From Eubacteriales bacterium (GTDB lineage Bacteria; Bacillota; Clostridia; Peptostreptococcales; Anaerovoracaceae), in contig JAQUUY010000001.1 in NCBI GenBank assembly GCA_028693645.1, positions 30,318-94,317 on the forward strand: a stretch of 64,000 nt of DNA, in the 5' to 3' direction. A program made the position numbers and the translations under genes. Each line of letters opens with the position of its first letter. Position 1 is the stretch's first letter. The notes under the pieces are model-generated. The model was not told the DNA's origin. It saw only the letters and a program-made list of their open reading frames with translations, and did no database searches. This document shows positions 7,311 to 53,524 of this stretch, in pieces.

Positions 7311-7326
7311 GGAAATAGGAGGAAGC

Positions 7327-9357
7327 ATGTTAAACAATGAGCAAATTGCAGAGGCCATGAAAATCTGTTTATCGGGCGAACTTCCGCCGGTCAAACCTTT
7401 TGTTGAAGGGATTCGCCGAGCGCCTAAAAGAGAATTCACCTTGAATGAAAACGATACCTTGCTTGCTTTGAAAAATGCACTTCGTTATGTTCCGCCGGAA
7501 TGGCATGAGGAGTTAATTCCTGAGTTCTTGGAGGAGTTATTTAGCCGAGGCCGTATCTATGGCTATCGTTTTCGTCCGGAAGGCGAGATCAAAGCAAAAG
7601 CAATCGAGGAATACAAAGGGAACTGCATTGAGGGAAAAGCGTTTCAACTTATGATAGACAACAATCTTGATTTTGCTGTTGCCTTATATCCATATGAACT
7701 TGTTACCTATGGTGAGACCGGACAGGTTTGCCAAAACTGGATGCAATATCTTTTGCTGAAAAAATACCTTGAGGAGCTTACCGACGAGCAAACCCTGGTC
7801 GTGGCATCCGGTCATCCTTTGGGTGTATTCCGCTCTCCAAAAACTGCTTCGCGGGCAATTCTAACAAATGGCTTAATGATTGGCTTGTTTGATGACCAGG
7901 AAAACTGGCATCGTGCGGCCGCTTTGGGAGTTGCGAATTATGGACAGATGACTGCAGGCGGTTGGATGTACATCGGACCCCAAGGAATCGTTCACGGCAC
8001 CTTTAGCACTCTACTGAACGCCGGGAGAGCCAAACTTGGAATACCGGACGAAGAAGACCTCAAGGGGGTATTGTTTGTTAGCTCCGGCCTTGGCGGAATG
8101 AGTGGAGCACAGGGGAAAGCCGCGGAAATAGCGGGTGCAGTCGGACTCATTGCAGAGGTTGATGAATCGCGGATTAAGACGCGATTTGAGCAAGGATGGA
8201 TTAGCGAAATCGCAAGCTCAGAAAAAGAAGCTTTTGCTCTTGCAGAAAAACACCTTGTCCAAAAGAGTCCTGCGTCGATTGCCTACCATGGCAATATCGT
8301 CGACCTATTGGAGTATGCAGCTGCACAAGGAAAAAAAATAGCCTTGCTTTCTGATCAGACATCCTGCCATGCCGTCTATGATGGGGGCTATTGCCCGCAG
8401 GGATTATCCTTTGAAGAGCGAACCAGGCTTCTGACTGAGGATAAGGCAAGCTTTTGCAAAAAGGTGGATGCGTCTTTGAAACGTCATTTTGAAGCAATTA
8501 AGGCGTTGACTCAACAGGGGACCTACTTTTTTGATTACGGAAATAGCTTTATGAAGGCAATTTTTGATGCAGGTCAAAAGGAAATCTGTAAAAATGGAAG
8601 AGATGAGAGGGATGGCTTTGTTTTCCCATCCTACGTTGAGGATATTCTCGGTCCTCGCCTTTTTGATTATGGATATGGCCCATTTCGTTGGATTTGCCTT
8701 TCCGGAAAAAAAGAAGACTTGCATACGACGGATCAGGCAGCGATGGAGTGCATCAATCCCGAACGGAGATACCAAGATCGGGACAATTATAATTGGATTA
8801 GAGATGCAGAAAAAAATAGGCTGGTGGTGGGATCGCAGGCTCGGATTCTTTATCAGGATGCGTTTGGGAGAAGAGACATTGCGCTACGTTTTAATAAGCT
8901 TGTGCGGGACGGAGAATGTGGTCCGATTATGATGGGCCGAGATCACCATGACACCGGAGGGACGGATTCGCCTTTCCGAGAAACCTCAAATATCAAGGAC
9001 GGCAGTAATATCATGGCTGATATGGCAACGCAGGTATTCGCGGGAAACTGTGCAAGGGGAATGAGTCTTGTGGCCCTGCATAATGGCGGCGGCGTCGGAA
9101 TCGGCAAATCCATCAACGGCGGGTTTGGGATGGTTCTCGATGGCAGCGAGAGGGTAGATGAGATTTTGAAAACTGCAATGCTTTGGGATGTCATGGGCGG
9201 CGTTTCAAGAAGAGCATGGGCGAGAAATGAAAATGCCTTGGAAACCAGTGCGGATTATAATCGGAGAGAGCCGGGAAATCATATCACGCTTCCCTACTTA
9301 GCCGAGGATGAAGAGGCCTTGAGAAAGTTTGTGCATGAGGAATACGCGAAAAGGTAG
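7327..9357 (+). CDS. hutU: urocanate hydratase (long form)
   Basis: 676 aa with urocanase-like blocks (GQMTAGGWMYIGPQGIVHGT, GLGGMSGAQ). Follows hutH by 16 nt. Confidence 0.93.
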   Translation: MLNNEQIAEAMKICLSGELPPVKPFVEGIRRAPKREFTLNENDTLLALKNALRYVPPEWHEELIPEFLEELFSRGRIYGYRFRPEGEIKAKAIEEYKGNCIEGKAFQLMIDNNLDFAVALYPYELVTYGETGQVCQNWMQYLLLKKYLEELTDEQTLVVASGHPLGVFRSPKTASRAILTNGLMIGLFDDQENWHRAAALGVANYGQMTAGGWMYIGPQGIVHGTFSTLLNAGRAKLGIPDEEDLKGVLFVSSGLGGMSGAQGKAAEIAGAVGLIAEVDESRIKTRFEQGWISEIASSEKEAFALAEKHLVQKSPASIAYHGNIVDLLEYAAAQGKKIALLSDQTSCHAVYDGGYCPQGLSFEERTRLLTEDKASFCKKVDASLKRHFEAIKALTQQGTYFFDYGNSFMKAIFDAGQKEICKNGRDERDGFVFPSYVEDILGPRLFDYGYGPFRWICLSGKKEDLHTTDQAAMECINPERRYQDRDNYNWIRDAEKNRLVVGSQARILYQDAFGRRDIALRFNKLVRDGECGPIMMGRDHHDTGGTDSPFRETSNIKDGSNIMADMATQVFAGNCARGMSLVALHNGGGVGIGKSINGGFGMVLDGSERVDEILKTAMLWDVMGGVSRRAWARNENALETSADYNRREPGNHITLPYLAEDEEALRKFVHEEYAKR

Positions 9358-39496: not shown

Positions 39497-42400
39497 TTGA
39501 AACCATTTAAAAGAGTCCTTGTGGCAAACCGCGGAGAAATCGCGATTCGCGTGTTTCGGGCTTGCAAAGAGCTTGGAATCCGTACCGTTGCGATCTATTC
39601 AGAAGAAGATCAATATGCTTTGTTTCGAACAAAAGCAGATGAATCATATAAAATTGGAAACGGGAAATCCGCTGTTGATGCTTATTTGGGAATTGGTGAA
39701 ATCATTGAGCTGGCAAAAGCAAAAGGGGTCGATGCCATTCATCCCGGCTATGGTTTCTTATCCGAAAACACTGACTTTGCAAGACTTTGCGAGGAAGCAG
39801 GTATTGTTTTTATCGGGCCAACCTATGAAATGATGGAACAGCTCGGAGACAAGGTTACCTCGAAACTTGTCGCGGCAAAGGTCGGAGTTCCAACGATCCC
39901 CGGTGTAGAAAAAGTAATTGCCTCAGAAAAAGAAGCTCTCGAATATGCCGCATTTTGTGGATATCCTGTCATGCTTAAGGCTTCGGCCGGTGGCGGTGGG
40001 CGCGGAATGCGTGTCGTCAGAGACGAAAAAGACCTGATTGCGGAATTCAGAAGCGCAAGCAGTGAAGCCGGAAAAGCATTCGGAATCGATGCGATATTTA
40101 TTGAAAAATATATTGAACATCCAAAACATATTGAAGTCCAGATTCTCGGCGATAATTACGGTGGACTCGTGCATCTTTATGAGCGTGATTGCTCCGTACA
40201 GAGACGTCATCAAAAAGTAGTTGAAATGTCACCGGCACTTTGCCTTTCAGAAGAACAAAGACAAAGAATTTGTGCAGATGCTTTGAAAATTGCGGGAGCA
40301 GTGAGCTATCGAAACGCCGGAACTGTAGAATTCCTTCTTGACCAAGAAGGGAATCACTATTTTATTGAGATGAATCCAAGAATTCAGGTTGAACACACCG
40401 TGAGTGAAATGGTGACTGGGATTGACATCGTTCAGTCTCAGATTCTCATCGCCCAAGGCTATCCACTTTCCTCTGATAAAGTAAATATCAAGGGTCAGGA
40501 ATCGATTGTGCCTAATGGCTATTCTATCCAATGTCGTATCACAACAGAAGATCCGGAAAACGGCTTCGCTCCTGATACGGGAACCTTGGATGTCTACCGG
40601 ACCGGCTCGGGCTTTGGCATTCGTCTTGACGGAGGAAACGGATTTACCGGCGCAAAGATTACCCCTTATTATGACAGCCTGCTTGTTAAGGTGACTTCAT
40701 GGGCGCGCACCTTTGAAGATGCAATCGAAAAATCAGCAAGAGCTTTGGATGAAATCAAAATCAAAGGAGTGAAAACAAACATTGGCTTTCTTCTTAATGT
40801 TTTGAATCACCCTGTTTTTCGTGCGGGCCAATGCAATACCGGTTTTATCGGTGAGCATCCCGAACTCTTTGAAATCAAGGCAAGCGTAGATAAAGAATTG
40901 AAGCTGATTCGTTTTCTCGGAGAAAAAGCGGTCAATGAGCACCATGAGAACAAACCGCAATTCAATATTCCTTATGTGCCGGATCTTTCGGATCGTGGTA
41001 CAAAACCCGGAAGCAAGCAGCTTCTTGACGAATTGGGGCCAAAGAAACTTTCTTCTTGGATACTCGGGCAAAAGCAGCTACTGATTACCGATGCCACGAT
41101 GCGCGACGCACAACAATCTCTGATGGCAACAAGACTCAGAACTATTGACATGCAACGAATTGCGCCTGCAATGTCAAAATTGGCAGGAGATCTCTTTTCG
41201 ATTGAGTTATGGGGCGGAGCGACGTTTGATGTTGCCTATCGCTTTTTAAATGAATCTCCTTGGGAGCGATTGGCAGTTCTTCGTGAGAGTATTCCAAACG
41301 TCATGTTTCAAATGCTTCTTCGCGGTGCAAATGCTGTCGGTTATAAAAACTATCCGGATAATGTCGTTAAACGCTTTATAAAAGAAGCAGCAGCATCCGG
41401 AATCGATGTTTTCAGAATTTTTGATTCCTTAAACTGGAATGAAGGAATGGTTGTATCGATTGATGAAGTTCTCAGTCAAAACAAAGTGGCTGAGGTTGCC
41501 CTTTGTTATACAGGGGATATCCTTGATAAGTCAAAGAATAAATATGATTTGGCATATTATGTCCGAAAAGCAAAAGAAATCGAAAAGATGGGGGCACATA
41601 TTTTATGCATTAAAGATATGTCGAGCCTCTTGAAACCAATGGCAGCGTATGATTTGATAAAAGCACTTAAGAACGAAGTATCAATTCCGGTGCATCTGCA
41701 TACCCACGACACCAGCGGTAACGGTGGAGCAACACTGATGATGGCGGCGATGGCCGGCGTAGACATTGTTGATGCGGCATTTAGCAGTATGGCAGGGCTC
41801 ACGAGTCAACCATCCTTAAACTCTCTTGTTGCGGCACTGAAAAATACGGAACGCGACACACTCCTTTCCCAGGATGATTTGCAAGCGATTTCAAACTATT
41901 GGAGTGATGTTAGACCTGTTTATCAGCAATTTGAATCTGAACTCAAAGCAGGAACCGCGGAAATCTATAAATATGAGATTCCAGGAGGACAGTATTCCAA
42001 TCTGAAACCTCAGGTTGAAAGCTTTGGACTGGGGCATAAATTTGAAGATGTAAAAGAAATGTTCAAAAATGTAAACGAGATGCTCGGGGATATCGTAAAA
42101 GTTACGCCATCGTCGAAGGCGGTCGGAGACATGTCAATCTTTATGGTGCAAAATGAACTGACGGCAGAAAACATTTATGACAAGGCAAAAGATATGGATT
42201 TCCCGGATTCCATTGTATCCTATTTCGAAGGTATGATGGGTCAGCCCGAAGGTGGATTCCCCGAAAAACTGCAAAACCTTGTCTTGAAAGGAAAAACTCC
42301 GATTACCGGAAGACCGGGAGAACTGCTTCCCGATGAAGATTTTGATTCAATCAAAGAGTATCTTGAAAAAACGTATCAGATTGAAGCGAATGAGCAGGAA

Positions 42401-42931
42401 CTCCTAAGCTATGCTCTCTATCCGAAGGTGTTTGAGGATTACCAAAAGAAACTCGTAAAAGAAGGATCCTTCCGTTATATGGGAAGCGACGTTTTCTTCC
42501 ATGGCCTTCGCGAAGGTGAAATCTGCGAGGTCAAGATAGCAGAAGGAAAAGTACTCGTCCTGAAATTAGTAGAAGTCGGCAGCCTCAACGAAGAAGGAAA
42601 CCGTTCTGTTGTCTTTGAAATCAACGGAAACAGAAGAGCGGCACAGATTAAAGATAAGAATGCCGAAAGAACTATGACCTTGCAAACGACTCTGCTTGCA
42701 GACACGGACGATCCTACACAGGTCGGAGCAAATATTTCCGGGAATGTAGTGAAAATCTTTGTCAAAGAGGGTGAACAAGTCGAAGAAGGACAACCGCTTG
42801 CTGTCTTGGAAGCGATGAAAATGGAAACCAATATTCTTTCCCCGATGAAAGGCATATTGAAAGAACTCTGTGTAAAAGAAGGCGCGCAGGTAGCTGCCGG
42901 CGAACTTGTAGCCAAACTTTCGTATGAGTAA
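39497..42931 (+). CDS. pyc: pyruvate carboxylase
   Basis: 1144 aa with biotin carboxylase, carboxyltransferase and biotinyl (EAMKMET) domains. TTG start after GGAGA. Confidence 0.98.
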   Translation: MKPFKRVLVANRGEIAIRVFRACKELGIRTVAIYSEEDQYALFRTKADESYKIGNGKSAVDAYLGIGEIIELAKAKGVDAIHPGYGFLSENTDFARLCEEAGIVFIGPTYEMMEQLGDKVTSKLVAAKVGVPTIPGVEKVIASEKEALEYAAFCGYPVMLKASAGGGGRGMRVVRDEKDLIAEFRSASSEAGKAFGIDAIFIEKYIEHPKHIEVQILGDNYGGLVHLYERDCSVQRRHQKVVEMSPALCLSEEQRQRICADALKIAGAVSYRNAGTVEFLLDQEGNHYFIEMNPRIQVEHTVSEMVTGIDIVQSQILIAQGYPLSSDKVNIKGQESIVPNGYSIQCRITTEDPENGFAPDTGTLDVYRTGSGFGIRLDGGNGFTGAKITPYYDSLLVKVTSWARTFEDAIEKSARALDEIKIKGVKTNIGFLLNVLNHPVFRAGQCNTGFIGEHPELFEIKASVDKELKLIRFLGEKAVNEHHENKPQFNIPYVPDLSDRGTKPGSKQLLDELGPKKLSSWILGQKQLLITDATMRDAQQSLMATRLRTIDMQRIAPAMSKLAGDLFSIELWGGATFDVAYRFLNESPWERLAVLRESIPNVMFQMLLRGANAVGYKNYPDNVVKRFIKEAAASGIDVFRIFDSLNWNEGMVVSIDEVLSQNKVAEVALCYTGDILDKSKNKYDLAYYVRKAKEIEKMGAHILCIKDMSSLLKPMAAYDLIKALKNEVSIPVHLHTHDTSGNGGATLMMAAMAGVDIVDAAFSSMAGLTSQPSLNSLVAALKNTERDTLLSQDDLQAISNYWSDVRPVYQQFESELKAGTAEIYKYEIPGGQYSNLKPQVESFGLGHKFEDVKEMFKNVNEMLGDIVKVTPSSKAVGDMSIFMVQNELTAENIYDKAKDMDFPDSIVSYFEGMMGQPEGGFPEKLQNLVLKGKTPITGRPGELLPDEDFDSIKEYLEKTYQIEANEQELLSYALYPKVFEDYQKKLVKEGSFRYMGSDVFFHGLREGEICEVKIAEGKVLVLKLVEVGSLNEEGNRSVVFEINGNRRAAQIKDKNAERTMTLQTTLLADTDDPTQVGANISGNVVKIFVKEGEQVEEGQPLAVLEAMKMETNILSPMKGILKELCVKEGAQVAAGELVAKLSYE

Positions 42932-42966
42932 GCAAAGAAGTAAGTAAAGAATAAAGCGAGATATAA

Positions 42967-43004
42967 AAGAAACGATTCTTGGAAACGGGGGTCGTTTCTT
43001 TTTG
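42967..43004 (+). terminator. rho-independent terminator of pyc
   Basis: AAGAAACGA pairs with TCGTTTCTT (9 bp), followed by a T-run. Confidence 0.6.
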
Positions 43005-43025
43005 TCGTTTTGTCGAAAATTGTCG
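43003..43025 (+). repeat. three direct TGTCG repeats (8- and 10-bp register)
   Basis: TGTCG occurs at 43003, 43011 and 43021, directly upstream of the putative -35 of the pilus operon. Confidence 0.5.
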
Positions 43026-43036
43026 ATTGTTAATAA

Positions 43037-43065
43037 TTGTAATTAAAACATATTAAAGGTAAAAT
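43037..43065 (+). promoter_or_regulatory. putative sigma-A promoter of the Tad-like operon
   Basis: TTGTAA, a 17-nt spacer, then TAAAAT. Confidence 0.4.
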
Positions 43066-43111: not shown

Positions 43112-44248
43112 ATGGAAAAAATTAAGCTTCTAATCATAAGTGAGGATTCGGAATATGCGGTGGCTCTCAGCAGATTACTCAGCATAAAATATGATTGCTT
43201 TCGTATTGACATCAAATCAGGAAAAACGAACACTGCAAGTATCGAAAAATGCAGATCCGCATTCTATGATTTGCTCCTTTATGACAGGTGCGATGAGGCT
43301 TATGAGCAAAGTCTTTTATCTGAAGATCAATCAAAATGTGTATTACTTACAGAGGAAGAATCCTTCTTCAGGAAAGACGAAAATGACGAAGATTCAAATA
43401 ATAAGAAAGATAAAAAACAAGAGCAACTGATTTATAAGTATGCCGGAGCAGACAAAATTGCTTCTGATTTACAGCTGTTTTATATGGAAGCAACGGGAAA
43501 AACGAAAAAAACTACTTTGGGGACGGGGGCGGAGCTAATCTTGTTTTCAGGAGCGGCCGGAAATGTCGGAAAAACAGCGCTCTGCATTGCAACTGCAAGG
43601 GAATTGGCTGAATTTCATAGAAAAAAAGTACTGCTCTTGTCTTTTGAATCCCCCGAATCGTTTGGTTTTTATTTAGACGAAGAAGGGAAAGGTCGAGGGT
43701 TAAATGAATACTTATACTACTTGTTTGCAAAATATAAACAATATTCTCCGATTGATCCCGCTGCCTTTCTGACGCATGATCGATTTGCCGTTGACTACTT
43801 CCGCCCCGGGAACAGTATAAATGAACTCATCGAGCTGAGCCTTGCCGATTTGAGAGATTTATTAGCTTCCGTAGCCAACTTCAAAGCGTATGAATATATT
43901 TGCTGTGATGTGTCTTGTTTCTCATTAAAAAAGTATTTTGAACTCTTATCTTTGGCAGACAGAATCATTCATATCGACGATGGTTCTCCTCTTTCCATTT
44001 ACAAAAATGAGGCGCTGCTGAATGCATACTATTTAGCGACGGAGGAAGAGAATTCTGATCGCCTGATAAGGGTGAGGAACAAATGGCAAGAACGAAAGGC
44101 GTCTTCTGTTGAAAACAATATAGATTTGTTTATCGAATATGATCCGGAAAGCTTTCGAGCGACGACAGTCGGTCTTGAAATCGAAATGGACCGGTGTTTT
44201 GGATTGGGGGTCAAAAAGCTTGCAGAAAAAATCCGAAGACAGATATGA
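43112..44248 (+). CDS. TadZ/CpaE-like pilus assembly protein (receiver-like N-domain plus ParA/MinD-like ATPase domain)
   Basis: 378 aa from ATG 43112 (RBS GAGGTG). The N-terminus KIKLLIISEDSEY...YDLLLYD resembles a receiver fold. The P-loop is FSGAAGNVGKTALC. The gene sits directly before cpaF. Confidence 0.6.
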   Translation: MEKIKLLIISEDSEYAVALSRLLSIKYDCFRIDIKSGKTNTASIEKCRSAFYDLLLYDRCDEAYEQSLLSEDQSKCVLLTEEESFFRKDENDEDSNNKKDKKQEQLIYKYAGADKIASDLQLFYMEATGKTKKTTLGTGAELILFSGAAGNVGKTALCIATARELAEFHRKKVLLLSFESPESFGFYLDEEGKGRGLNEYLYYLFAKYKQYSPIDPAAFLTHDRFAVDYFRPGNSINELIELSLADLRDLLASVANFKAYEYICCDVSCFSLKKYFELLSLADRIIHIDDGSPLSIYKNEALLNAYYLATEEENSDRLIRVRNKWQERKASSVENNIDLFIEYDPESFRATTVGLEIEMDRCFGLGVKKLAEKIRRQI

Positions 44249-45443
44249 TACCGTAAGTACGCTAAAAGAAATAACCGAAAATGTAAGAGCTGTTATCAAC
44301 AGCAAAGATCAAAAATTGACCGATGCGGAAGTACTTGATTTGATCGAAGCCTTTGTTTTAAAAGACAGTAGAACCCAAGTCTGCTCTTATCAAACGAAAG
44401 GTGATGTGATTAGCAGCGTTTTTAATGCAACAAGAAAAGAATTAGACCTTTTACAACCCTATGCCGATGATCGAGAAGTCAGTGAAATCATGGTCAATGG
44501 AATTGAAGGTATTTTTATTGAAAAGAAAGGAAAGATTGAACGTCTTTCGAAGAATTTCGAGACAAAAGAAGAACTAGAAGAAATTATAAGACGTTTGGCC
44601 GGAAAGGTTCATCGAGAGATAAATGAGCTGAACCCCATTGTTGATGCAAGAATGGAAGATGGCTCAAGAATTCATGCCGTTTACAAAAATGTTGCGCTCA
44701 ATGGACCAATTCTAACGATTCGGCGTTTCCCAGAAAAGAAGATTAGTATGAGCGAGCTCATTGAATATGGAAGTATCACAGAGGAAGCGGCTTTGTTTCT
44801 TAAGCAATTAGTCATTGCGGGCTATAATATCTTCATCTCCGGAGGAACCAGCTCAGGGAAAACGACGTTTCTCAATGTGTTGTCGAATTATATTCCCAAA
44901 GAAGAACGTGTCATCGTCATAGAAGATTCAGCGGAGCTTCAGATTATGGAAATAGAAAACCTTGTGCGAATGGAAAGCAGAAATGCAAATGTACAAGGCA
45001 AAGGAGAAGTTTCAATCCGACAATTGATTAAAGCAAGCTTAAGAATGCGTCCGGATCGCATCATTGTTGGTGAAGTGAGAGGGCCGGAAGTCCTTGATAT
45101 GATACAGGCGATGAATACCGGGCATGATGGATCTCTCTCAACCGGCCATGGTAATTCACCGGTTGGGATGCTGACAAGACTTGAAACGATGTATCTGATG
45201 GCAGCAGAATTTCCGATTGAAGCTATCAGAAATCAAATTGCAGAAGCCATTGATATCATTGTGCACCTCGGTAGAACCCCGGACCGTGGAAGAAAAGTTC
45301 TTGAAATCATTGAACTGGCCGGAATCGAAAATGGAAAAATCAGAGTGAATACCTTGTTTTCTTATACGAATGCCGCAGGCTTAAAAGCCACAGGGAACAA
45401 GCTTTCAAATCAAAGCAAACTGGAACGAAAGGGGATGATATAA
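44139..45443 (+). CDS. cpaF: CpaF/TadA family secretion ATPase
   Basis: Walker A GGTSSGKTTFLN, Walker B VIVIEDSAEL, and a His box GHDGSLSTGHGNS. The start is uncertain: ATG 44139 overlaps the upstream gene by 110 nt, and TTG 44220 follows GGGGG. Confidence 0.9.
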   Translation: MIRKAFERRQSVLKSKWTGVLDWGSKSLQKKSEDRYDTVSTLKEITENVRAVINSKDQKLTDAEVLDLIEAFVLKDSRTQVCSYQTKGDVISSVFNATRKELDLLQPYADDREVSEIMVNGIEGIFIEKKGKIERLSKNFETKEELEEIIRRLAGKVHREINELNPIVDARMEDGSRIHAVYKNVALNGPILTIRRFPEKKISMSELIEYGSITEEAALFLKQLVIAGYNIFISGGTSSGKTTFLNVLSNYIPKEERVIVIEDSAELQIMEIENLVRMESRNANVQGKGEVSIRQLIKASLRMRPDRIIVGEVRGPEVLDMIQAMNTGHDGSLSTGHGNSPVGMLTRLETMYLMAAEFPIEAIRNQIAEAIDIIVHLGRTPDRGRKVLEIIELAGIENGKIRVNTLFSYTNAAGLKATGNKLSNQSKLERKGMI

Positions 45444-45445
45444 GG

Positions 45446-46189
45446 ATGCCTACGTATGATCGATACGTGCTTTCCAAACAAGAAAAACTAAGGTACTTTT
45501 GTATCTGTTGCCCGTTGATAAGCGGTATTTCTTATCTGTTTTATCATAGCATTATATTTTGTATTCTCTTGCCGCTCCTTTCGATACCGGGTCAGCGAAA
45601 GTACGAAGCGTACTTGATCAGCCGTCAAAAAAAAGAATTGTCAAAGCAATTCCGAGATCTTCTCTACTCACTCTCTGCTTCTTTTTCCGCATCAAAGCAG
45701 ATGAAAGAGGCATTGAAGGAATCTTTGCCGGTTTTACTACTCCTTTACGGAGAAAATTCACTCTTGATAAAAGAAATATCACAGATTGTCAGAAAAATGG
45801 AAGAAAGTCGTGATTCGGAAGAATCCTTGCTCTCAGATTTCGCAGAAAGAAGCGCCGATGGAGAAATTCAAAGTTTTGTTGATGTCTATCTTATCTGCAG
45901 AAAATCCGGTGGCAATCTGATACAAGTGATTTCAAAAACAGTGGAGGTATTGATTGAAAAACTGGACATCACTCGGGAAATACAAAAGATGACGGCGCAA
46001 AAACGTTTTGAATCAATGATTATCACGGCAATCCCGCTCTTAATGTTGCTCTTTCTTCAATGTTCCAGCCCTGATTTTACTGCCGTGCTTTATGAAACGC
46101 TCGCAGGTCGGCTGTTGATGACCCTTGCACTTTTGGGAACGGTAGTAGCTTCTTGTTGGAGCAGAAAAATTACGGAAATTGACTTTTAG
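45446..46189 (+). CDS. tadB: TadB-like type II secretion system F-family membrane protein
   Basis: 247 aa with an N-terminal TM helix, a cytoplasmic helical T2SSF-like domain and C-terminal TM helices. Lies 2 nt after cpaF. Confidence 0.7.
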   Translation: MPTYDRYVLSKQEKLRYFCICCPLISGISYLFYHSIIFCILLPLLSIPGQRKYEAYLISRQKKELSKQFRDLLYSLSASFSASKQMKEALKESLPVLLLLYGENSLLIKEISQIVRKMEESRDSEESLLSDFAERSADGEIQSFVDVYLICRKSGGNLIQVISKTVEVLIEKLDITREIQKMTAQKRFESMIITAIPLLMLLFLQCSSPDFTAVLYETLAGRLLMTLALLGTVVASCWSRKITEIDF

Positions 46190-46219
46190 CGATATTCTTA
46201 GAAAAAGGGGGAATCTCAA

Positions 46220-47596
46220 TTGCTGAGAAGCAAGGCTTTTATAAAAAGCGGCATTCAATATTTTGAGAAGCTTGATCGATTTTTACCTTTTGATCTCTGC
46301 GGTAAAAAAGAAAAAATGCAGGAATTGTTCGGAAAGCGATATTGGCGAAAAGATACCGAAAGAATCGTCAAGGAAACTCGTCAAAAAACAGCGGGAGCAT
46401 ATCTGCTTCTTATCAGCCTTCTCCTTATTTTGATTTTTTTCTTTGCAATCTCTGCCTTGCAGCAAGGGGAAGAAGTGAAAACCATTTCAAGGCCGGAGTA
46501 TGGTGAACCGGTCAAAACGGAGCGGCTTTTCGCAAGAATGGAATATGACGGAAAAATTTTGGAGAAAGAAACAAAAGTAAAAGTGCTTCCGCAAGTTCGT
46601 TCAGTCCATGCAACGGAAAAAGCACTTGAACAATTTGAACAGGATTTGGAAATCAAAATTCTTGGGAAAAACAAAGATATCAAACACGTGTGCACGGATC
46701 TTTTCCTGTTTACAAAAGAAGAAGGAAGTGATGTCGCTATAGAATGGTTTTCCAATAAGCCGGAGTTACTTTCTCGAGAAGGAAAGGTTGATACGATTTT
46801 AGCCAAGGGGAAAGAACAAAATGTCGAATTAACAGCCGTGTATTCTTTGGGGGAGATAGAGAGAAAAATCACGTTTCCCGTTCATATTACGGATGGAGAG
46901 AAAGCAAATGATAAAACAACTTTAGAAGAGCGTCTGTCAAATGCAATCGAGAATGTTGAAGAAGGGCCGGCGGTCGGAACGCGCTTGACTTTGCCGAAAA
47001 CTCTTGGTGAAGAAGTCAGGATTCGTTGGATTGAAAAGGAAAAGAACCCTTTACCGGAATTGTTGCTGTTGTTCGTTGTTGTTTTTGGAATCATCTATCG
47101 TCTTCGTTATAAAACCGCAGAAAATGAAGTGAAAACGGATCAGAAAGCAATTTTAAATGATCTTCCCGATTTTACGAATAAATTGCTTCTCCTTCTTTCT
47201 GCAGGGCTTGTAAGCGAATCTGCGATTCGGAAAATCACAACTGATTATAGAAAACGGTGTTCAACAAAACAAAAACCCTTGTACGAAGGCTTTTGTGAGA
47301 TTGAACAACGAATGCAGTTGACAAATGCATCGTTTCTAAAAGAATTTAGTGATTTTGCTCAAAAAAGCGGAGTTAGAGAGCTGATTCGTTTGCAGACAAT
47401 CATTTCCGAAAACATGTACATTGGAAACAGTTTGAGTGAAAAACTTGAAACAGAAGCAGCAATGCTTTGGTTTTATAAGAAGAAGAGCGTGGAGGAAAGA
47501 GGGCAACTTGCGGAAACAAAACTCACATTTCCGCTGTTACTTCAGCTCATAATTCTAATGGTGATTACGTTGGCACCTGTGTTTTTGAAGCTTTAG
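46220..47596 (+). CDS. tadC: TadC-like T2SSF-family membrane protein with a large extracytoplasmic insertion
   Basis: 458 aa. TM helix at aa 58-80, a roughly 200-aa soluble domain, TM helix at aa 279-293, then a T2SSF-like helical domain (ILNDLPDFTNKLLLLLSAGL...) and a C-terminal TM helix. TTG start after AGGGGG. Confidence 0.65.
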   Translation: MLRSKAFIKSGIQYFEKLDRFLPFDLCGKKEKMQELFGKRYWRKDTERIVKETRQKTAGAYLLLISLLLILIFFFAISALQQGEEVKTISRPEYGEPVKTERLFARMEYDGKILEKETKVKVLPQVRSVHATEKALEQFEQDLEIKILGKNKDIKHVCTDLFLFTKEEGSDVAIEWFSNKPELLSREGKVDTILAKGKEQNVELTAVYSLGEIERKITFPVHITDGEKANDKTTLEERLSNAIENVEEGPAVGTRLTLPKTLGEEVRIRWIEKEKNPLPELLLLFVVVFGIIYRLRYKTAENEVKTDQKAILNDLPDFTNKLLLLLSAGLVSESAIRKITTDYRKRCSTKQKPLYEGFCEIEQRMQLTNASFLKEFSDFAQKSGVRELIRLQTIISENMYIGNSLSEKLETEAAMLWFYKKKSVEERGQLAETKLTFPLLLQLIILMVITLAPVFLKL

Positions 47597-47605
47597 GACA
47601 TTGCT

Positions 47606-47809
47606 TTGAATAGTAAAATAAGAAGGGAGAAGTACGGACTCGTAGGTACCGTGCATGAAAAAATGATGAAAAACAGCAAAAAAGGAATGGAAATGGTGCA
47701 GGTGGCAATTTTGATTGCTATTGCAGTGGCTTTAGGATTGATTTTCAGAGAGAGGATAATGGACTTTGTTGATGCGACATTTGACGGGCTGTCCTCTTCG
47801 GGATTTTAA
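47606..47809 (+). CDS. flp: Flp-type (type IVb/class III signal) pilin
   Basis: A short basic leader ...NSKKG is followed by MEMVQVAILIAIAVALGLIF and a short tail, giving a mature size of about 40 aa. The start is ambiguous (TTG 47606 or ATG 47663). Confidence 0.7.
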   Translation: MNSKIRREKYGLVGTVHEKMMKNSKKGMEMVQVAILIAIAVALGLIFRERIMDFVDATFDGLSSSGF

Positions 47810-48090
47810 TGAGTTGCTGCTTTCGTTTCTTCTCTCACTGTAAGACTAAAAAAGGAGCGGTTATGATTGAGGCAGCGTTAGTATTACCTCTGTCGATTTT
47901 TCTTATAATGGGGTTATTTACTCTTGCGCTTCATTATCATGAACAAGCAGTGCAACAAACAGAGGAGTATTGTCAAGTGAGACAAGAAGCAAAGGTAGAG
48001 GGAAAAACCGATTTGCGTGAAGCAGAATTTGTTACGAGAATTGATTTCCTGCAAGAAGTGGTCGACGGAAAGGAAAAGAAAAGTGATTAA
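47809..48090 (+). CDS. TadE-like pseudopilin
   Basis: 93 aa. TKKG/AVMIEAALVLPLSIFL matches the TadE N-terminal motif with Glu at +5. TAATG overlap with flp. Confidence 0.65.
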   Translation: MSCCFRFFSHCKTKKGAVMIEAALVLPLSIFLIMGLFTLALHYHEQAVQQTEEYCQVRQEAKVEGKTDLREAEFVTRIDFLQEVVDGKEKKSD

Positions 48091-49414
48091 GAATAACAAA
48101 AAAGGATCGGTACCTGTCTTTTTGGGAACCATCTTGCTTTCTTTTCTTCTCGTAGTAGCGATTTTGATGGAATCAGCAGTCGGTATCGTAGGGAGAGGGT
48201 ATGCAGATGGTGTTTTGAATCTGGCAGGACGTTCGATCCTTTCCGAATATGACAGACATTTGAAGGAAGACTATGGACTGTTTGCTGTTTTGATGGACGC
48301 AGAAGAAGCAGAAAAAAAGCTGACTTATTATTCGAATGAAAGCTTTGACTCTCATTTTGGATATACCGATTTGTTTTCACTTTCTCTCGAAGAGGTGAGG
48401 GTTGATTTTTCAAGTTACCCATTGAGCAATCCCGATCGCCTTGAAAAACAGATTATGGAATACATGGAGTTCCGAATCGTAAGTGAGGGAATCACGGCAC
48501 TTGATCTGTTGGAAAATCCAAAAAAACTTGATTGCTACTGCGATAAAAAAACAGAAGCAAAGAGCAGCGCCTTGAAAGTGGAGCGTGATTTAAAAAATCA
48601 ACAGATAATAAAGGGGCTTCCTTCCCATGTACTCAAAAATGAGTTTGATTTCACTTCGGCTCTTCCTCAGAACTTTAATATGAAGAAACTGCTTCATATT
48701 ACGAAAGATAGCATCAGTTTGAACCTCTATATACTAAAATGTTTTCGCCATCAATTAGATGACGAAGATTGGAACAATACCTTTTTTGCAAACGAGGTCG
48801 AATATATTTTGTGTGGAAGTGAAAGTGACAGTCGAAACAGAACGCTTGTAAAAGCAAGCTTGCTTGTCTTGAGAACCGGAATTGATCTTGCCCATATTTA
48901 CACTGATCCTCTAAAACGCCAAAGTATTTTGACCGTTGCGGCACTTGTTTTCCCAGGAGCCGCTGCTCCGGCGGCAGCAATTTTGATTGCTATCGGATGG
49001 GCCGCAGCAGAAGCGGCGAATGACCTTGGGCGCCTTGCGAAAGGAGATCGTGTCCCTTTATATAAAACGACTGCTGATTGGATGATTGATCTGGACAGTC
49101 TTCTTGAGAAGAAAGAAGAAAAAACAACCATGAAGAGACAAACTGCCGGAATCGTTATTTTGAAACCGGAATCGACAGGTCTTGATTATGAAAATTATTT
49201 ATTCTTGCTACTTTGTTTTAAAAGCAGAGAAACAAAGCTGTTTCGAATTATGGATTTAATACAGATCAACATGAAAGGAAACTATTATTCCGATTTCCTC
49301 CTATCTCATTGTTACGGCGGAATCGATTTTGTTTGCCGTATTGAACGAAAAAACAGCTTCTTGCCATTCGGTTCCTTGCGAAAAGGAGTTTTTTATGAAA
49401 GTCATGTTTACTAA
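48083..49414 (+). CDS. TadG-like pilus-associated protein
   Basis: 443 aa from GTG 48083, which overlaps the upstream stop (GTGATTAA). The N-terminus NKKGSVPVFLGTILLSFLLVVAILMESAV resembles the TadG-type N-terminal helix, followed by a large soluble domain with an internal hydrophobic stretch. Confidence 0.6.
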   Translation: MIKNNKKGSVPVFLGTILLSFLLVVAILMESAVGIVGRGYADGVLNLAGRSILSEYDRHLKEDYGLFAVLMDAEEAEKKLTYYSNESFDSHFGYTDLFSLSLEEVRVDFSSYPLSNPDRLEKQIMEYMEFRIVSEGITALDLLENPKKLDCYCDKKTEAKSSALKVERDLKNQQIIKGLPSHVLKNEFDFTSALPQNFNMKKLLHITKDSISLNLYILKCFRHQLDDEDWNNTFFANEVEYILCGSESDSRNRTLVKASLLVLRTGIDLAHIYTDPLKRQSILTVAALVFPGAAAPAAAILIAIGWAAAEAANDLGRLAKGDRVPLYKTTADWMIDLDSLLEKKEEKTTMKRQTAGIVILKPESTGLDYENYLFLLLCFKSRETKLFRIMDLIQINMKGNYYSDFLLSHCYGGIDFVCRIERKNSFLPFGSLRKGVFYESHVY

Positions 49415-50222
49415 GTGGAGACGAAGAAAAAGGGGATCTGCTATCGTCGAGGCAGCTTTGTTTCTTCCATTTTTCCTTTTGGCTTTGCTTTCTCTGATCC
49501 TAATCATTCGTTTGGTGAGTGTAGAAGGAAGCATGATGGAAATCTGCACAAAAGAAGCGCAGATAGTAGCGAAGGAAGCATATTTAACGAATTTGCCGGA
49601 GATACCCGAGGGAGTTGAAAAAAACATCGTTGGTGGTTTGGCTCATGGGACGCTTATGAAGCTTCGTATACGCCAAGCGGTAGACAGTAAAGAGAAACTG
49701 CCCTTATCGGAGTTGCGGCTGCAGAGTTTCTTCTATTTGTTTTCGGCACATGAGACAGATTCGCTGATACGACCATCATTTACTTACCAAAGCAGCATTC
49801 CTTTGCCGGGCGGATTTGGGCGAACAATTAAATTTAAACGCGTCTTTTTGTTTCGTGCGTTTGTGGGATCTGTCGGCATGAATTCTGCAATGGGTTTTAC
49901 TGAAATGGAAAAAGAAGAAAGCTCCGAGCTGGTATCTATCTTTCCTCGTGCGGGGAAACGGTATCATAAAAAAAATTGCAAGGTAATTACTGTTTATCCG
50001 ATAGAAACCTTATTAACAAATGCAGTACAGCGGAAATACAGTCCATGTTCACTTTGCAAACCAAATGAGAACGCGTTTGGCAGCAAGGTGTATCTTTTTC
50101 CGGAAAGCGGTGAAGTTTTTCATCGTGAAAATTGTGTGCTTGTAAAACGCTATGTGACTGAAATTGAAAAACAGGAAGCAATCAAGAAAGGTTACAGTCC
50201 CTGTAAATTATGCGGAGGATGA
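49395..50222 (+). CDS. TadE-like pseudopilin fused to two C-terminal H-C-C-C zinc-binding modules
   Basis: 275 aa from ATG 49395 (RBS AAAGGAG). RKRG/SAIVEAALFLPFFLL has Glu at +5. The C-terminus carries YHKKNC-x22-YSPCSLC and FHRENC-x22-YSPCKLC. Confidence 0.6.
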   Translation: MKVMFTKWRRRKRGSAIVEAALFLPFFLLALLSLILIIRLVSVEGSMMEICTKEAQIVAKEAYLTNLPEIPEGVEKNIVGGLAHGTLMKLRIRQAVDSKEKLPLSELRLQSFFYLFSAHETDSLIRPSFTYQSSIPLPGGFGRTIKFKRVFLFRAFVGSVGMNSAMGFTEMEKEESSELVSIFPRAGKRYHKKNCKVITVYPIETLLTNAVQRKYSPCSLCKPNENAFGSKVYLFPESGEVFHRENCVLVKRYVTEIEKQEAIKKGYSPCKLCGG

Positions 50223-50223
50223 T

Positions 50224-50943
50224 ATGTTTAAGCTTGAGGAACTAAAGAAAGAAGAAATTGGCGGACGGCTTGTTTTGTCAATCGAAAACACGAAAGACTG
50301 GCCTCCGGTGTATCAGAAGCGAGTCTTGGAAAAAGGTTGCAAAGGGCTTTTGCAAATGACTTTTCTTGAGATCGAAGAGAATTGCAGGATTTACTATCAA
50401 GTGGATTCCTATAAACCATTCACGGATTACTTAGAGAGTTTGTTTTCGAACAAACGCGAACTTCACTCAAATCCAACAAGAGAAATCCTTCGTATTCTGA
50501 TAGATGTGCTGTCTTGTGTCTTAGATGCCGAAGATTGTTTGCTCTTTGTTGAAGCATTCGCCTTTAACAAGGATACCATCTTTGTCCATATTGATACGAA
50601 AGAAGTGCGGCTTGCCTATTTACCAACAACGAAAGCAGGGCAGACCGGCAATCCTTTTTTGAAAGAGCTGATTGAAGCAATCTCCAACCAATATCAGGAG
50701 GAACAATGGCAGTCTTGCGCTCAAGAATTGCTATGTGAAATCGAGCAAAAGAACAAAGGATCTCTTGAACTCATCAAATGGTTTAGAGAGAAAGCTCGAG
50801 ATTTGCATCTTCGTGGTTGGCCAAACGAAGAACTTGAAAGAAGTGTGGAGGGGGAAGTAGATAATTCCTTTGAAATCGCTGTCGATTGCCCAGAAAAAGC
50901 GGAGAAGAAAAGAAGCGTTTTCTCTTTTGATAAAAGAAAATAA
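50224..50943 (+). CDS. hypothetical soluble protein, last gene of the Tad-like operon
   Basis: 239 aa from ATG 50224 (RBS GGAGGA), starting 1 nt after the upstream stop. No TM helix and no motif recognised. Confidence 0.55.
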   Translation: MFKLEELKKEEIGGRLVLSIENTKDWPPVYQKRVLEKGCKGLLQMTFLEIEENCRIYYQVDSYKPFTDYLESLFSNKRELHSNPTREILRILIDVLSCVLDAEDCLLFVEAFAFNKDTIFVHIDTKEVRLAYLPTTKAGQTGNPFLKELIEAISNQYQEEQWQSCAQELLCEIEQKNKGSLELIKWFREKARDLHLRGWPNEELERSVEGEVDNSFEIAVDCPEKAEKKRSVFSFDKRK

Positions 50944-50944
50944 T

Positions 50945-50966
50945 AAGCCGGGCAAAAGCCCGGCTT
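50945..50966. terminator. bidirectional terminator hairpin
   Basis: AAGCCGGGC-AAAA-GCCCGGCTT, a perfect 9-bp stem. A T-rich tract follows on the minus-strand side. Confidence 0.75.
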
Positions 50967-50992: not shown

Positions 50993-51160
50993 CTAACGAT
51001 CAGTTCTGACCTGTCTTCTTTCGTTCTTTTTTCTGTCTCTGCAATCCTTACATCTTTTTGGTTCGTTATCAAAACCTTTTTCCTTGTAGAACTCCTGCTC
51101 ACCTGCTGTAAACACGAATTCTGCGCCGCAATCCTGACATACGAGTGTTTTGTCTTCCAT
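50993..51160 (-). CDS. small zinc-ribbon protein (55 aa), not in the ORF track
   Basis: My translation: MEDKTLVCQDCGAEFVFTAGEQEFYKEKGFDNEPKRCKDCRDRKKNERRQVRTDR. RBS GGAGGA lies 10 nt upstream. CxxC...CxxC motif. Confidence 0.8.
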   Translation of the reverse strand: MEDKTLVCQDCGAEFVFTAGEQEFYKEKGFDNEPKRCKDCRDRKKNERRQVRTDR

Positions 51161-51507: not shown

Positions 51508-52416
51508 ATGCTCGGATACATCGTTCCGGATAAGCCGGAATTAAAAATAAAAGAATATGATCTCTATTCCGGTTATTATTGTGGAATCTGCAAATCAATC
51601 GCAAGGAGATATGGGCAAGTGCCACGATTGGTATTGAACTACGATTCTGTTTTGCTTGCCTTGGTCATTTCTTCTCTTTTTGACGAACAGGAAAAGGCTT
51701 CGTTAGAACGTTGCCCCGTACATCCTTTGAAAAAAAGATTGATTGTGGCAGATCAACAGGGGATTGATTATGCAGCGGATATGATGCTCTTACTTGCTTA
51801 TTTTAAAGTACAAGATGATCTTCTCGATGAGCGGAATCTAAAGTCAGGGCTTGCTTCGTTTGCCTTGTCCGGAACTTTTAAAAAACTACTGAAAAAGTAT
51901 CCGGAGAAATGTATAATAGTCGAAGAAAACCTTGAAACGCTACATCGGCTGGAAAAAGAAAATTGTCCCTCTTTGGATCAAGCGGCAGAACCTTTTGCCA
52001 AATTGATGGAGGAAATTTTTGCAGAGAAAGAAGTTTCGCGAACAAAGGAAACCGGCGAAACGCTCAAACGAATCGGCTATCACATTGGGAAATGGATTTA
52101 CCTCATTGATGCGTTTGACGATATCGAAGAGAACAAGAAAAATGGCACGTACAATCCACTTCTTGCCGCTGAGATGAAACAAAAACACCTTGGCGAGAAA
52201 GCGGAAGCAACGAGTGTTGCAGGATTGCGAGAGGAGATACGACCGAGGATTGAATTCAATCTTCTCTACTATCTCGCAGAACTCGGTGCTGCTTGGGAAT
52301 CATTGGACAGAAAGAAAAATCAATCATTGATTGATAACATTATTTACATGGGGCTGTTACGAAAAACGGAACAGGTATTACAGAAAGGAACAACTAAAAA
52401 TGCAGAATCCGTATGA
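51508..52416 (+). CDS. uncharacterised protein (probably DUF5685-type) with isoprenoid-synthase-like Asp-rich motifs
   Basis: 302 aa. N-terminal YCGICKS...RCPVHP, plus QDDLLDE (aa ~102) and DAFDDIEENKKNGTYNPL (aa ~201). Composition suggests an all-helical protein. Confidence 0.6.
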   Translation: MLGYIVPDKPELKIKEYDLYSGYYCGICKSIARRYGQVPRLVLNYDSVLLALVISSLFDEQEKASLERCPVHPLKKRLIVADQQGIDYAADMMLLLAYFKVQDDLLDERNLKSGLASFALSGTFKKLLKKYPEKCIIVEENLETLHRLEKENCPSLDQAAEPFAKLMEEIFAEKEVSRTKETGETLKRIGYHIGKWIYLIDAFDDIEENKKNGTYNPLLAAEMKQKHLGEKAEATSVAGLREEIRPRIEFNLLYYLAELGAAWESLDRKKNQSLIDNIIYMGLLRKTEQVLQKGTTKNAESV

Positions 52417-52972
52417 GGTATTGGGAATCAAAGAGGGAGCAACAAAAGAAGAGATTAAAGCGGCTTATCGCGAACAGGTAAAGAAGTACCATCCGGATCG
52501 TCATCAAGACAATCCTTTGTACGAATTAGCCGAAGAAAAGCTTCAGGAAATCAATGAAGCATACGAAACGCTTACGAAAGATGGCGGAAACAGAACGTAT
52601 CGAAGCGGGACCGCCGGACCGGGTCAAACGCAAGATCTCCGCCAAGTGCGAGTATATATTGATAAGGGAAATCTGGGCGCAGCAGAAGCTGAATTGAATC
52701 GCAGTTCCATCAGAAACGCAGAGTGGTTTTATCTCTCTGGAATTTTATCGATGAGAAAAGGTTGGTATGATGATGCGATAAATAACATTCAGACAGCCTG
52801 CAGCATGGAACCTGCCAATTATGAATACCGAAATGCCATGAATAGCATGATGCAAACCTCGCAGGGCTACAGAACAACAGCCAACAATCGCGGTTACTCT
52901 AATTCGAATGATGAATTATGCAGAATGCTGCAATGTTATTGCTGTGCGGATGCACTTTGTGATTGTATGTAA
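52400..52972 (+). CDS. J-domain protein with a TPR-like middle and a C-terminal cysteine string
   Basis: 190 aa from ATG 52400. J domain YEVLGI...KKYHPDRH. The tail is CRMLQCYCCADALCDCM. Overlaps the upstream gene by 17 nt. Confidence 0.8.
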   Translation: MQNPYEVLGIKEGATKEEIKAAYREQVKKYHPDRHQDNPLYELAEEKLQEINEAYETLTKDGGNRTYRSGTAGPGQTQDLRQVRVYIDKGNLGAAEAELNRSSIRNAEWFYLSGILSMRKGWYDDAINNIQTACSMEPANYEYRNAMNSMMQTSQGYRTTANNRGYSNSNDELCRMLQCYCCADALCDCM

Positions 52973-52987
52973 CTCGTAGGAGAACCC

Positions 52988-53524
52988 ATGATAAGAAAAA
53001 AAAGTCCGGCCGCAAAATTGTCTTTTGGGGGAATCATGTTAGGACTATCATGGATTACCCTGTTTTTTGCTGCCTTCATTCCGGGAATGGAATTAACTCT
53101 TTTTTCGTTGTGTACGTTTTATGTGGTCCTCGTCGTTGGTGTGACATCCGTGGTTAATGGGTGGATTCTATATGCGGCGACCTGTCTTTTGGTACTTGTA
53201 ATGATACCGGACAAAATCGCGATTCTTCCGTATGTGTTTTTCTTTGGATTATACGGGCTTGTGAAGTTTTATATTGAAAGAATCAGGAAAACGCCGATAG
53301 AGTATCTGCTGAAACTCCTATTCTTTAACCTTTCTTGGGGCATCACTATTTTTGTATTTAAGAGTGCCTTTCTATCAAATATTGGACTGCCTGATCTTCC
53401 GGTCGCTGCTCTTGTAGTCGGAGCGCAGTTTATGTTCGTTCTCTACGATCAAATATTAACAAGGCTTTACAGCTATTTTCATAGGCGCTTTGGCCGACTG
53501 ATTGAAGGAAGGATGTTTAGATGA
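52988..53524 (+). CDS. polytopic membrane protein of unknown function
   Basis: 178 aa, about 5 TM helices. RBS AGGAGA. ATGA-coupled to rarA. Confidence 0.6.
   Translation: MIRKKSPAAKLSFGGIMLGLSWITLFFAAFIPGMELTLFSLCTFYVVLVVGVTSVVNGWILYAATCLLVLVMIPDKIAILPYVFFFGLYGLVKFYIERIRKTPIEYLLKLLFFNLSWGITIFVFKSAFLSNIGLPDLPVAALVVGAQFMFVLYDQILTRLYSYFHRRFGRLIEGRMFR

Follow-up and report, generated by a model that had tools for sequence, protein, structure and literature searches.

Tad (type IVc) pilus operons of Firmicutes have been surveyed before (Imam et al. 2011, PMC3244431; Denise et al. 2019, PMC6668835), and tad operons are most widely distributed amongst the Clostridia, with some encoding 'Flp-like' pilins that lack Tyr at +6 (PMC3244431). 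No Firmicute Tad pilus has been functionally studied, and characterised monoderm Tad pili are known from Actinobacteria (PMC6916266). A monoderm Tad system needs no more than a pilin with two minor pilins, a pair of platform proteins, an ATPase, either TadZ or TadG, and a prepilin peptidase whose gene can be unlinked; of all machineries that build a type IV pilus, it may be the smallest (PMC6916266). Here we describe a nine-gene Tad/Flp-like operon of an uncultured Eubacteriales bacterium of the Anaerovoracaceae (GenBank assembly GCA_028693645.1, contig JAQUUY010000001.1), located at 43112–50943 on the + strand of a 64-kb stretch of DNA which we refer to as the window (positions 30,318–94,317 of the contig; all coordinates are those of the window unless a related locus is named). 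An earlier note on this DNA had called Firmicute Tad systems essentially uncharacterised, and this holds for their function but not for their operons, given the surveys cited above and the solved structure of the Eubacterium rectale TadZ protein. We conclude that the nine genes are very probably a functional operon for a secretin-less Tad pilus of a monoderm, and that they represent a distinct and vertically inherited subtype common in the Anaerovoracaceae (Family XIII) and neighbouring Clostridia. The locus is a member of the Tad/type IVc class, and the subtype is coherent and so far undescribed. It is marked by a Flp1_like pilin with Gln at +5, a DUF5702 pseudopilin-like protein, a TadE protein with two His-Cys3 modules and a DUF6382 protein, and further by an aBig_2 domain which is often found in TadC, the lack of a linked peptidase, and a fixed chromosomal slot.

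An open reading frame (ORF) scan found nine + strand ORFs running in the same direction between 43103 and 50943, and when start codons were picked by their ribosome-binding sites the genes proper were placed at 43112–50943. These starts match an independent gene call on an identical metagenomic contig (L001) except for genes 5 and 6, where we kept the starts which include the conserved leaders described below. The gaps between genes 1–9 are −29, +2, +30, +69, −1, −8, −20 and +1 nucleotides, confirming the tightly coupled operon proposed in the earlier note, and the gap of −110 nucleotides given there arises from the longest possible ORF for gene 2 and should be replaced by this range of −29 to +69. 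The −29-nucleotide overlap between genes 1 and 2 is also present in two related loci, L002 and L003. These come from a set of seven distinct related loci (L002, L003/L004 and L006–L010) which includes Anaerovorax odorimutans and metagenome-assembled genomes (MAGs) labelled Oscillospiraceae, Bacilli and Clostridiales.

The first four genes encode the core machinery, and the TadZ/CpaE-like, CpaF, TadB and TadC assignments made earlier are each supported by profile matches. Gene 1 (43112–44248, +; 378 residues), in which a GAGGTG ribosome-binding site precedes the ATG at 43112, is a TadZ homologue with an N-terminal receiver-like domain and an atypical ParA/MinD-type P-loop ATPase domain. Alone it gives weak P-loop Pfam matches, but a profile of five orthologues searched against the PDB found the E. 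rectale TadZ structure 3FKQ (E = 1.5e-26, residues 3–319) with MinD and Soj next, making this solved Firmicute protein a clear homologue over both domains; the orthologues also match AAA_31 (2e-8) and, weakly, TadZ-like_ARD. The Walker A motif reads GNVGKT in the window and its Lys is replaced by Ile, Cys or Val in the orthologues, a lack of conservation which is expected for the atypical P-loop of TadZ. Gene 2 (44220–45443, +; 407 residues; TTG start at 44220, with the longest ORF beginning at 44139) encodes a CpaF/TadA-family hexameric secretion ATPase matching Pfam T2SSE at 1.6e-50 and the NCBIfam TadA-family model at 5.5e-83, the latter below that model's own cut-off. Its placement in the CpaF/TadA clade follows from the PDB comparison, where the closest structure is Caulobacter CpaF (8RKD, 1.4e-78), well ahead of FlaI (4e-39) and VirB11, and the translation contains a Walker A motif (GGTSSGKTT), a Walker B motif (IEDSAEL) and a His box (NTGHDGS).

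Genes 3 and 4 are adjacent and encode a pair of platform proteins with a single T2SSF domain each. The TadB-like protein of gene 3 (45446–46189, +; 247 residues) has three hydrophobic segments and matches T2SSF at 3.2e-8 (34 bits against a cut-off of 25.2 bits). In the TadC-like protein of gene 4 (46220–47596, +; 458 residues; a good ribosome-binding site lies ahead of the TTG at 46220) the C-terminal T2SSF match is 0.039 in the window copy and is found in six of the eight orthologues, the best at 2.2e-8; a PDB sequence search with this protein was without match. Gene 4 also contains an Ig-like aBig_2 domain (2.2e-11, residues 140–223), matched in five of the eight orthologues, which is predicted to be extracytoplasmic and lies between membrane segments one and two.

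This core can be compared with the Flp/tad loci of Bifidobacterium breve UCC2003 and Micrococcus luteus which, like the window, have no secretin, RcpB/C or TadD, and combine two TadE/F-type minor pilins with paired TadB/TadC proteins, a single CpaF/TadA ATPase and TadZ. The pilin is very small in both types of system, with 44 residues in B. breve and 40 in the window (PMC6916266). The window differs from the actinobacterial systems in that its pilin is Flp1_like rather than Flp_Fap and has Gln-Val instead of Glu-Tyr at +5/+6, in having an extra DUF5702 protein, a TadE protein with two His-Cys3 modules, a DUF6382 protein and the aBig_2 insertion in TadC, and in its fixed core-genome position which is not island-like. 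The better-known diderm systems, Cpa of Caulobacter crescentus and Tad of Aggregatibacter actinomycetemcomitans, share with the window the CpaF motor, the TadB/TadC pair, TadZ, TadE-type pseudopilins with the G/xxxxE motif (the slash marks the cleavage site), and the gene order of ATPase, platform, platform. In contrast to these, the window lacks the secretin RcpA/CpaC, RcpB, RcpC/CpaB, TadD, a linked TadV/CpaA and a TadG (Pfam Tad) homologue, and its pilin genes are downstream of the machinery genes. Pfam searches of the nine products found no secretin, RcpB, RcpC/CpaB, TadD or Peptidase_A24, in agreement with the earlier note; the absence of the secretin, RcpB, RcpC and TadD is expected for a monoderm and compatible with the monoderm form of Tad (PMC6916266). 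The 'unusual composition' noted earlier is standard for a widespread clade and not a peculiarity of this genome.

The next four genes all encode proteins with a prepilin-type N-terminus, KNSKKG/MEMVQVAIL, KTKKG/AVMIEAAL, KNNKKG/SVPVFLG and RKRG/SAIVEAAL for genes 5–8, respectively. In a scan of all open frames of at least 45 codons, covering each of the six frames, we looked for a [KR][KR]G motif with an uncharged hydrophobic stretch after it; the window has exactly four such sites, all at the N-termini of these genes. As the leader of the major pilin is also conserved, we regard the four proteins as substrates for a class-III (A24) prepilin peptidase. Gene 5 (47666–47809, +; alternative starts at 47663 and 47606) encodes the major prepilin, in which the leader MKNSKKG is followed by a 40-residue mature pilin, MEMVQVAILIAIAVALGLIF..., matching Pfam Flp1_like (PF16982) at 6.5e-8 and 32.3 bits, just short of the 33.5-bit cut-off; the precomputed family listing of a protein identical to gene 5 leaves Flp1_like unmarked. 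The Flp-type pilin of the earlier note is thus retained with respect to its small size and its short basic leader ending in Gly, both of which agree with this type, but it is not a canonical Flp_Fap pilin: we found no Flp_Fap (PF04964) match at E ≤ 1 and no G/xxxxEY motif. A canonical Flp pilin has Glu-Tyr at +5/+6, whereas the mature protein here starts MEMVQV, with Gln-Val at these positions and Glu at +2.

Gene 6 (47809–48090, +; 93 residues; KTKKG/AVMIEAALVLP with Glu at +5) is a small TadE-type pseudopilin with a Pfam TadE score of 22.9 bits, equal to the cut-off, and scores of 24.1 (L006, above the cut-off), 18.9 and 14.7 in orthologues. Both gene 6 and gene 8 show the TadE/TadF-type combination of PF07811 similarity and the G/xxxxE motif. 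We considered whether the pilins of genes 5 and 6 might be leaderless, with starts after the leader, and rejected this as the leader MKNSKKG and an in-frame start are kept in all six loci compared, the start in L006 being a TTG preceded by a strong ribosome-binding site. It should be noted that some gene callers start genes 5 and 6 too late because the Lys-Lys-Gly codons, AAAAAAGGA, mimic a ribosome-binding site; such sites are found at 47678–47686 and 47848–47856, and an automatic caller misplaced the pilin start in L006 and the TadE start on L001. A start after the leader is likely to be a systematic annotation error for this pilin/TadE family. Genes 5 and 7 share 82% identity over 28 nucleotides of the DNA that encodes their leaders.

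Gene 7 (48083–49414, +; 443 residues) occupies the position of TadG and has a pilin-like leader and N-terminal helix (IKNNKKG/SVPVFLG...) followed by a large, mostly helical domain. It matches Pfam DUF5702 at 4.6e-50, a search for homologues found 86, and there was no match to Pfam Tad (PF13400) or TadG at E ≤ 1. An AlphaFold2 model (pLDDT 86.7, pTM 0.85) consists of a 48-residue helix (residues 6–53) and then a helical globule, and comparison with PDB folds gave no significant match (best E = 3.6). The name 'TadG-like' used earlier is therefore not backed by homology and, with no PDB fold match, describes a positional analogy together with a pilin-like N-terminus.

The TadE-type pseudopilin of gene 8 (49395–50222, +; 275 residues; RKRG/SAIVEAALFLP with Glu at +5) carries two C-terminal His-Cys3 modules, which we regard as putative zinc-binding modules; the earlier note had spoken of zinc modules in this protein. 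Word-indexed homology searches found five proteins for gene 8 and one for gene 9, and the size of the gene 8 family was instead taken from an exhaustive profile search, which gave 1902 family matches, with 170 at E < 1e-30 among 50%-identity representatives; nearly all of these relatives are 240–290 residues long and are matched over their full length. Among 107 representatives no exchange is seen at C218/C221, H243/C247 or C270/C273, and few or none at G14 (the cleavage Gly), E19 (Glu at +5), H191 and C195. The two modules are each about 50 residues long with the consensus VYVFPxxGxxYHxxxC...YxPCxxC. The TadE match is 15.1 bits in the window copy, and Pfam TadE is found in 15 of the 107 family members. 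In the AlphaFold2 model (pLDDT 90) a long N-terminal helix is joined by another helix and a β-sheet in a pilin-like arrangement, after which come the two small modules; a PDB fold search, as well as PDB sequence searches with the whole protein and with the zinc modules, were all without match. We also note that one 404-residue protein from the representative search, P0193, joins a TadC-like N-terminal part to the C-terminal zinc-module half of the gene 8 family; this may be either a genuine fusion or an artefact of assembly or of a frameshift.

These modules are central to the main rival explanation, in which the Tad-type filament serves mainly for DNA uptake (competence) and the His-Cys3 modules of gene 8 form an extracellular DNA receptor. 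There is a monoderm precedent in M. luteus, where Flp/Tad pili mediate transformation (PMC6916266, as cited there from Angelov 2015), and the behaviour of the cassette as a core-genome trait in a fixed housekeeping slot, unlike a mobile 'colonization island', would suit such a function. Some gene 8 family members also match the metal-binding, DNA-binding domain of Ada (Ada_Zn_binding, PF02805; 14 of 107 at E < 0.01, best 5.1e-7). However, the resemblance in the window protein is restricted to the C-terminal CxxC part (profile positions 48–62) and is below the cut-off (19.7 bits against 23 bits, E about 1e-3), and the first ligand of each module is His and not Cys as in Ada. The link to Ada is weak because a profile of the modules matches no Ada structure in the PDB. 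Zinc knuckles are, moreover, often purely structural, and no comEA, comEC or dprA is linked to the operon in the Pfam listings of the window or the related loci. We consider a filament used mainly for DNA uptake to be unlikely.

The last gene of the operon, gene 9 (50224–50943, +; 239 residues), had been described as a soluble unknown. It is predicted to be a cytoplasmic accessory protein without membrane helices, which agrees with the first part of this description, but it is not without a family as it matches DUF6382 (3.5e-13); there is no FHA domain, and a PDB sequence search was without match. Gene 9 is the final cassette gene in every locus examined and is fast-evolving, with 21–49% identity to its orthologues. 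Our literature search found no mention of DUF5702 or Flp1_like, and DUF6382 was mentioned only for type VII secretion systems (T7SS), where it is the cytoplasmic N-terminal domain of the components TseJ and TsfJ of Clostridia (Garrett et al., PMC11217815). In the DUF6382-FHA proteins TseJ and TsfJ of the T7SSe and T7SSf of Bacillota the domain is predicted to be cytoplasmic, as in gene 9, and one of these T7SS loci resembles the window in pairing DUF6382 with a TadZ-like receiver domain (in TsfV, where it is fused to AAA+) (PMC11217815). In contrast to the TseJ/TsfJ loci, the window has no T7SS genes (EssC, WXG100) near the operon, and gene 9 is without their FHA domain. The co-occurrence of DUF6382 and TadZ in two unrelated machines suggests, by analogy, a possible partnership between them.

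The T7SS connection also bears on a second rival explanation, that the genes encode a short pseudopilus acting as a piston for protein export across the wall, which would be the monoderm counterpart of type II secretion or the Tad-like Kil system. In its favour, minor pilins or pseudopilins bearing large domains make up three of the four pilin-like proteins, and Myxococcus uses repurposed Tad-like systems for contact-dependent killing (PMC8460266, PMC12075869). Garrett et al. also report that the T7SSg and T7SSh loci encode other Tad components, with T7SS components as the only other known setting of DUF6382 (PMC11217815). Against this, the 40-residue major pilin is extremely conserved, with 55–90% identity across deep divergence, which is typical of a structural fibre subunit, and none of the loci has a linked gene for a candidate substrate or toxin. 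An export piston is accordingly very unlikely, and we continue to regard the operon as encoding a pilus.

The distribution and position of the operon indicate how it has been inherited. The full nine-gene order is found in the same slot (ppdK/pyc ... zinc-ribbon gene, DUF5685, DnaJ, membrane protein, rarA, ispH-S1) in L002 (an 'Oscillospiraceae' MAG), L003/L004 (two metagenome contigs carrying one same locus), L006 (a 205-kb contig) and L007 (A. odorimutans reads). L008 (a 'Bacilli' MAG), L009 and L010 have eight linked genes adjoining rarA, and in L008 and L010 a TadZ orthologue is located a few kb off (hhalign E = 1.5e-22 and 1.4e-33, respectively). Identity between the window proteins and their orthologues is highest for CpaF (63–86%) and the Flp1_like pilin (55–90%), and lower for DUF5702 (33–65%), gene 8 (30–64%), TadZ (30–48%) and, as given above, DUF6382; for the flanking genes it is 79–88% (pyc) and 67–89% (rarA). 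The named relatives of the DUF5702 protein are mostly from Anaerovoracaceae/Family XIII (Lentihominibacter, Copromorpha and Anaerovorax). We have taken the distribution of the subtype from protein searches, as a scan of GTDB species genomes with the DUF5702 alignment, for which the peptide patterns are narrow, returned one locus identical to L002.

No homologues of gene 7 or gene 8 were found amongst the 72,556 plasmids of PLSDB, and no flanking repeats were found around the operon. Its GC (guanine plus cytosine) content is 0.402 compared with 0.428 for the flanks (2.6 points lower), and its codon usage has a cosine of 0.972 to the background where controls give 0.987 ± 0.004. These shifts are small but present, and the compositional break is therefore mild and not absent as had been suggested, while the position between pyc and rarA and the lack of repeats are as originally described. 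The features of an island (flanking repeats, a strong compositional break, and plasmid carriage of genes 7 and 8) were not found, and the same slot is used across deep relatives. The fixed slot, intact genes, lack of plasmid homologues and repeats, and small GC shift thus indicate purifying selection and an old, vertically inherited core-genome trait which is neither an island nor decayed. The tests set in the earlier note were profile searches for TadB/C, Flp and TadE and a comparison of relatives, and in these the profiles held and the nine genes were intact and syntenic. We note that in L009 two minus-strand genes (6450–9247 of that locus) split the cassette between tadC and flp, and encode a Na/Ala symporter and a 408-residue protein without a Pfam match which does not resemble TadZ (hhalign E = 0.53), so that the machinery half can be transcribed apart from the pilin half.

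A mechanism can be proposed in which the operon would be transcribed from a conserved sigma-A-like promoter just past the pyc terminator, producing four class-III prepilins: the 40-residue Flp1_like major pilin and three minor pilins or pseudopilins, namely the small TadE protein, the DUF5702 protein and the TadE protein of gene 8 with its two His-Cys3 modules. Cleavage after the leader Gly would fall to an A24 prepilin peptidase, presumably encoded elsewhere in the genome. By homology, a CpaF hexamer on the TadB/TadC platform and positioned by TadZ would drive pilin polymerisation and probably also retraction as in Caulobacter. By analogy with type IV filaments, the three minor pilins might form a priming or tip complex in which the DUF5702 helical domain and the zinc modules are exposed and probably ligand-binding. 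More speculatively, the extracytoplasmic Ig-like domain of TadC may support the base of the filament in the cell wall, replacing the missing RcpC and secretin parts, and the DUF6382 protein could act on TadZ or the ATPase from the cytoplasm, as an adaptor or regulator. What is seen directly is that the core machinery is homologous and that the prepilin motifs are present, whereas we infer processing, filament formation, the tip location and the roles of aBig_2 and DUF6382. By analogy with other systems, the default expectation for the role of the pilus would be adhesion, aggregation or colonisation.

Several points weigh against this account of a functional pilus. The major pilin is without the canonical Glu+5 and Tyr+6, so that the assembly role of Glu5 would need other means; the modules resemble the Ada zinc domain only weakly, with matches in 14 of 107 members and no Ada structure recovered by the module profile; and the roles suggested for DUF5702, the zinc modules, aBig_2 and DUF6382 draw on position, topology and analogy. 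In addition, we found no prepilin peptidase in the 64-kb window, in the few extra kb of the source contigs, or in the 10-kb flanks of the seven related loci. Most Gram-positive tad loci contain tadV (PMC3244431), in contrast to this subtype where it is never linked in the window or the seven related loci. As there is no A24 gene near any of the loci examined, any such peptidase would be systematically unlinked in this subtype, and there is a parallel in monoderm B. breve where the prepilin peptidase is at a separate locus (PMC6916266). Only three multi-pass membrane ORFs are found elsewhere in the window, an ammonium transporter, a ZIP transporter and an unassigned 178-residue protein, and the last of these was considered as a cryptic prepilin peptidase and rejected as it has no conserved Asp pair or GxGD motif (it is syntenic in relatives, with a DUF308 protein in its place in more distant loci).

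The missing peptidase would also suit a third rival explanation, that the operon is a non-working remnant kept by chance, for which the lack of an A24 peptidase in the sequence inspected (the window and the few extra kb of its source contigs) is the argument. This is hardly credible and strongly disfavoured: none of the nine ORFs is broken in the window or in relatives distant enough for their housekeeping genes to stand at 67–89% identity, conservation extends to the catalytic motifs, the leader Gly, Glu+5 and the full set of eight zinc ligands, and the family is very widespread. A bolder view would be that the operon encodes not an adhesion pilus but an ancient machine derived from Tad in the core genome of Family XIII and related Clostridia, with a primary task such as DNA capture or the sensing of another extracellular ligand, the zinc modules as receptor, DUF6382 and TadZ as a cytoplasmic control module shared with the clostridial T7SS, and Gln+5 reflecting a Glu5-independent assembly chemistry. 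We regard this as rather unlikely, and prefer the secretin-less Tad pilus.

We take the operon to be a genuine variant of a known machine, conserved, passed on vertically and hitherto uncharacterised. It extends a known class on good evidence, does not overturn current understanding and is unlikely to surprise a specialist. Judged by the DUF5702 homologues and at least 170 50%-identity clusters of the zinc-module pseudopilin, this compact nine-protein subtype is widespread, and it provides a system context for DUF5702, DUF6382, the unnamed TadE family with two His-Cys3 modules and the Flp1_like pilins. Whereas tad loci are usually pictured as islands that move horizontally, this subtype has a fixed core-genome position. 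As the relatives include gut-associated Anaerovoracaceae (Lentihominibacter and Copromorpha) and the cultured A. odorimutans, the subtype is experimentally testable and offers a useful opening into Firmicute Tad biology.

The boundaries of the operon are formed upstream by pyc (39497–42931) and downstream by a convergent gene for a 55-residue zinc-ribbon protein. A terminator-like hairpin (42965–43002, +) with a 17-pair stem and then a T run closes the pyc unit 34 nucleotides past the stop at 42931. It is followed by a promoter-like region (43002–43037, +) in which a consensus scan placed a −35-like TTGTCG at 43010 and, after a 16-nucleotide spacer, a −10-like AATAAT at 43032–43037. The block TTGTCGAAAA(T/A)TGTCGA(A/T)TG..AATAAT is the sole well-conserved part of the pyc–tadZ spacer in L002 and L003, where the rest has diverged, and probably functions as a sigma-70-like/sigma-A-like promoter just past the pyc terminator. 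TTGTCG occurs three times, at 43002, 43010 and 43020 (8 and 10 nucleotides apart), and two of the copies are kept upstream of tadZ in L002 and L003 as TTGTCGAAAA(T/A)TGTCGA; these repeats could be an operator for a regulator, instead of or besides a −35 element. No near-threshold Rfam riboswitch or small RNA match was found upstream of or inside the operon. Directly 3' of the last stop and before the zinc-ribbon gene is a GC-rich palindromic hairpin (50945–50966), with G-C at seven of its nine pairs. Because the T run is present on the minus strand only, it is plausible rather than certain that the + strand operon terminates here.

Some variation is seen in the neighbouring genes. In L006 (4029–5071 of that locus) and L007 (3754–4874) a ClpP-family (CLP_protease) gene and a small divergent PRC-barrel gene lie directly upstream of tadZ, and both are absent in the window where pyc directly precedes tadZ. 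The zinc-ribbon protein (50993–51160, −) matches zf_Tbcl, and between it and rarA is a + strand triad encoding a DUF5685 protein (51508–52416), a DnaJ-domain protein (52331–52972) and a small membrane protein (52988–53524) of about 170–180 residues, with six predicted segments in the window copy. The zinc-ribbon gene and this triad are syntenic with the Tad cassette in L002, L006 and L007, and the L003 contig reaches only as far as the zinc-ribbon gene.

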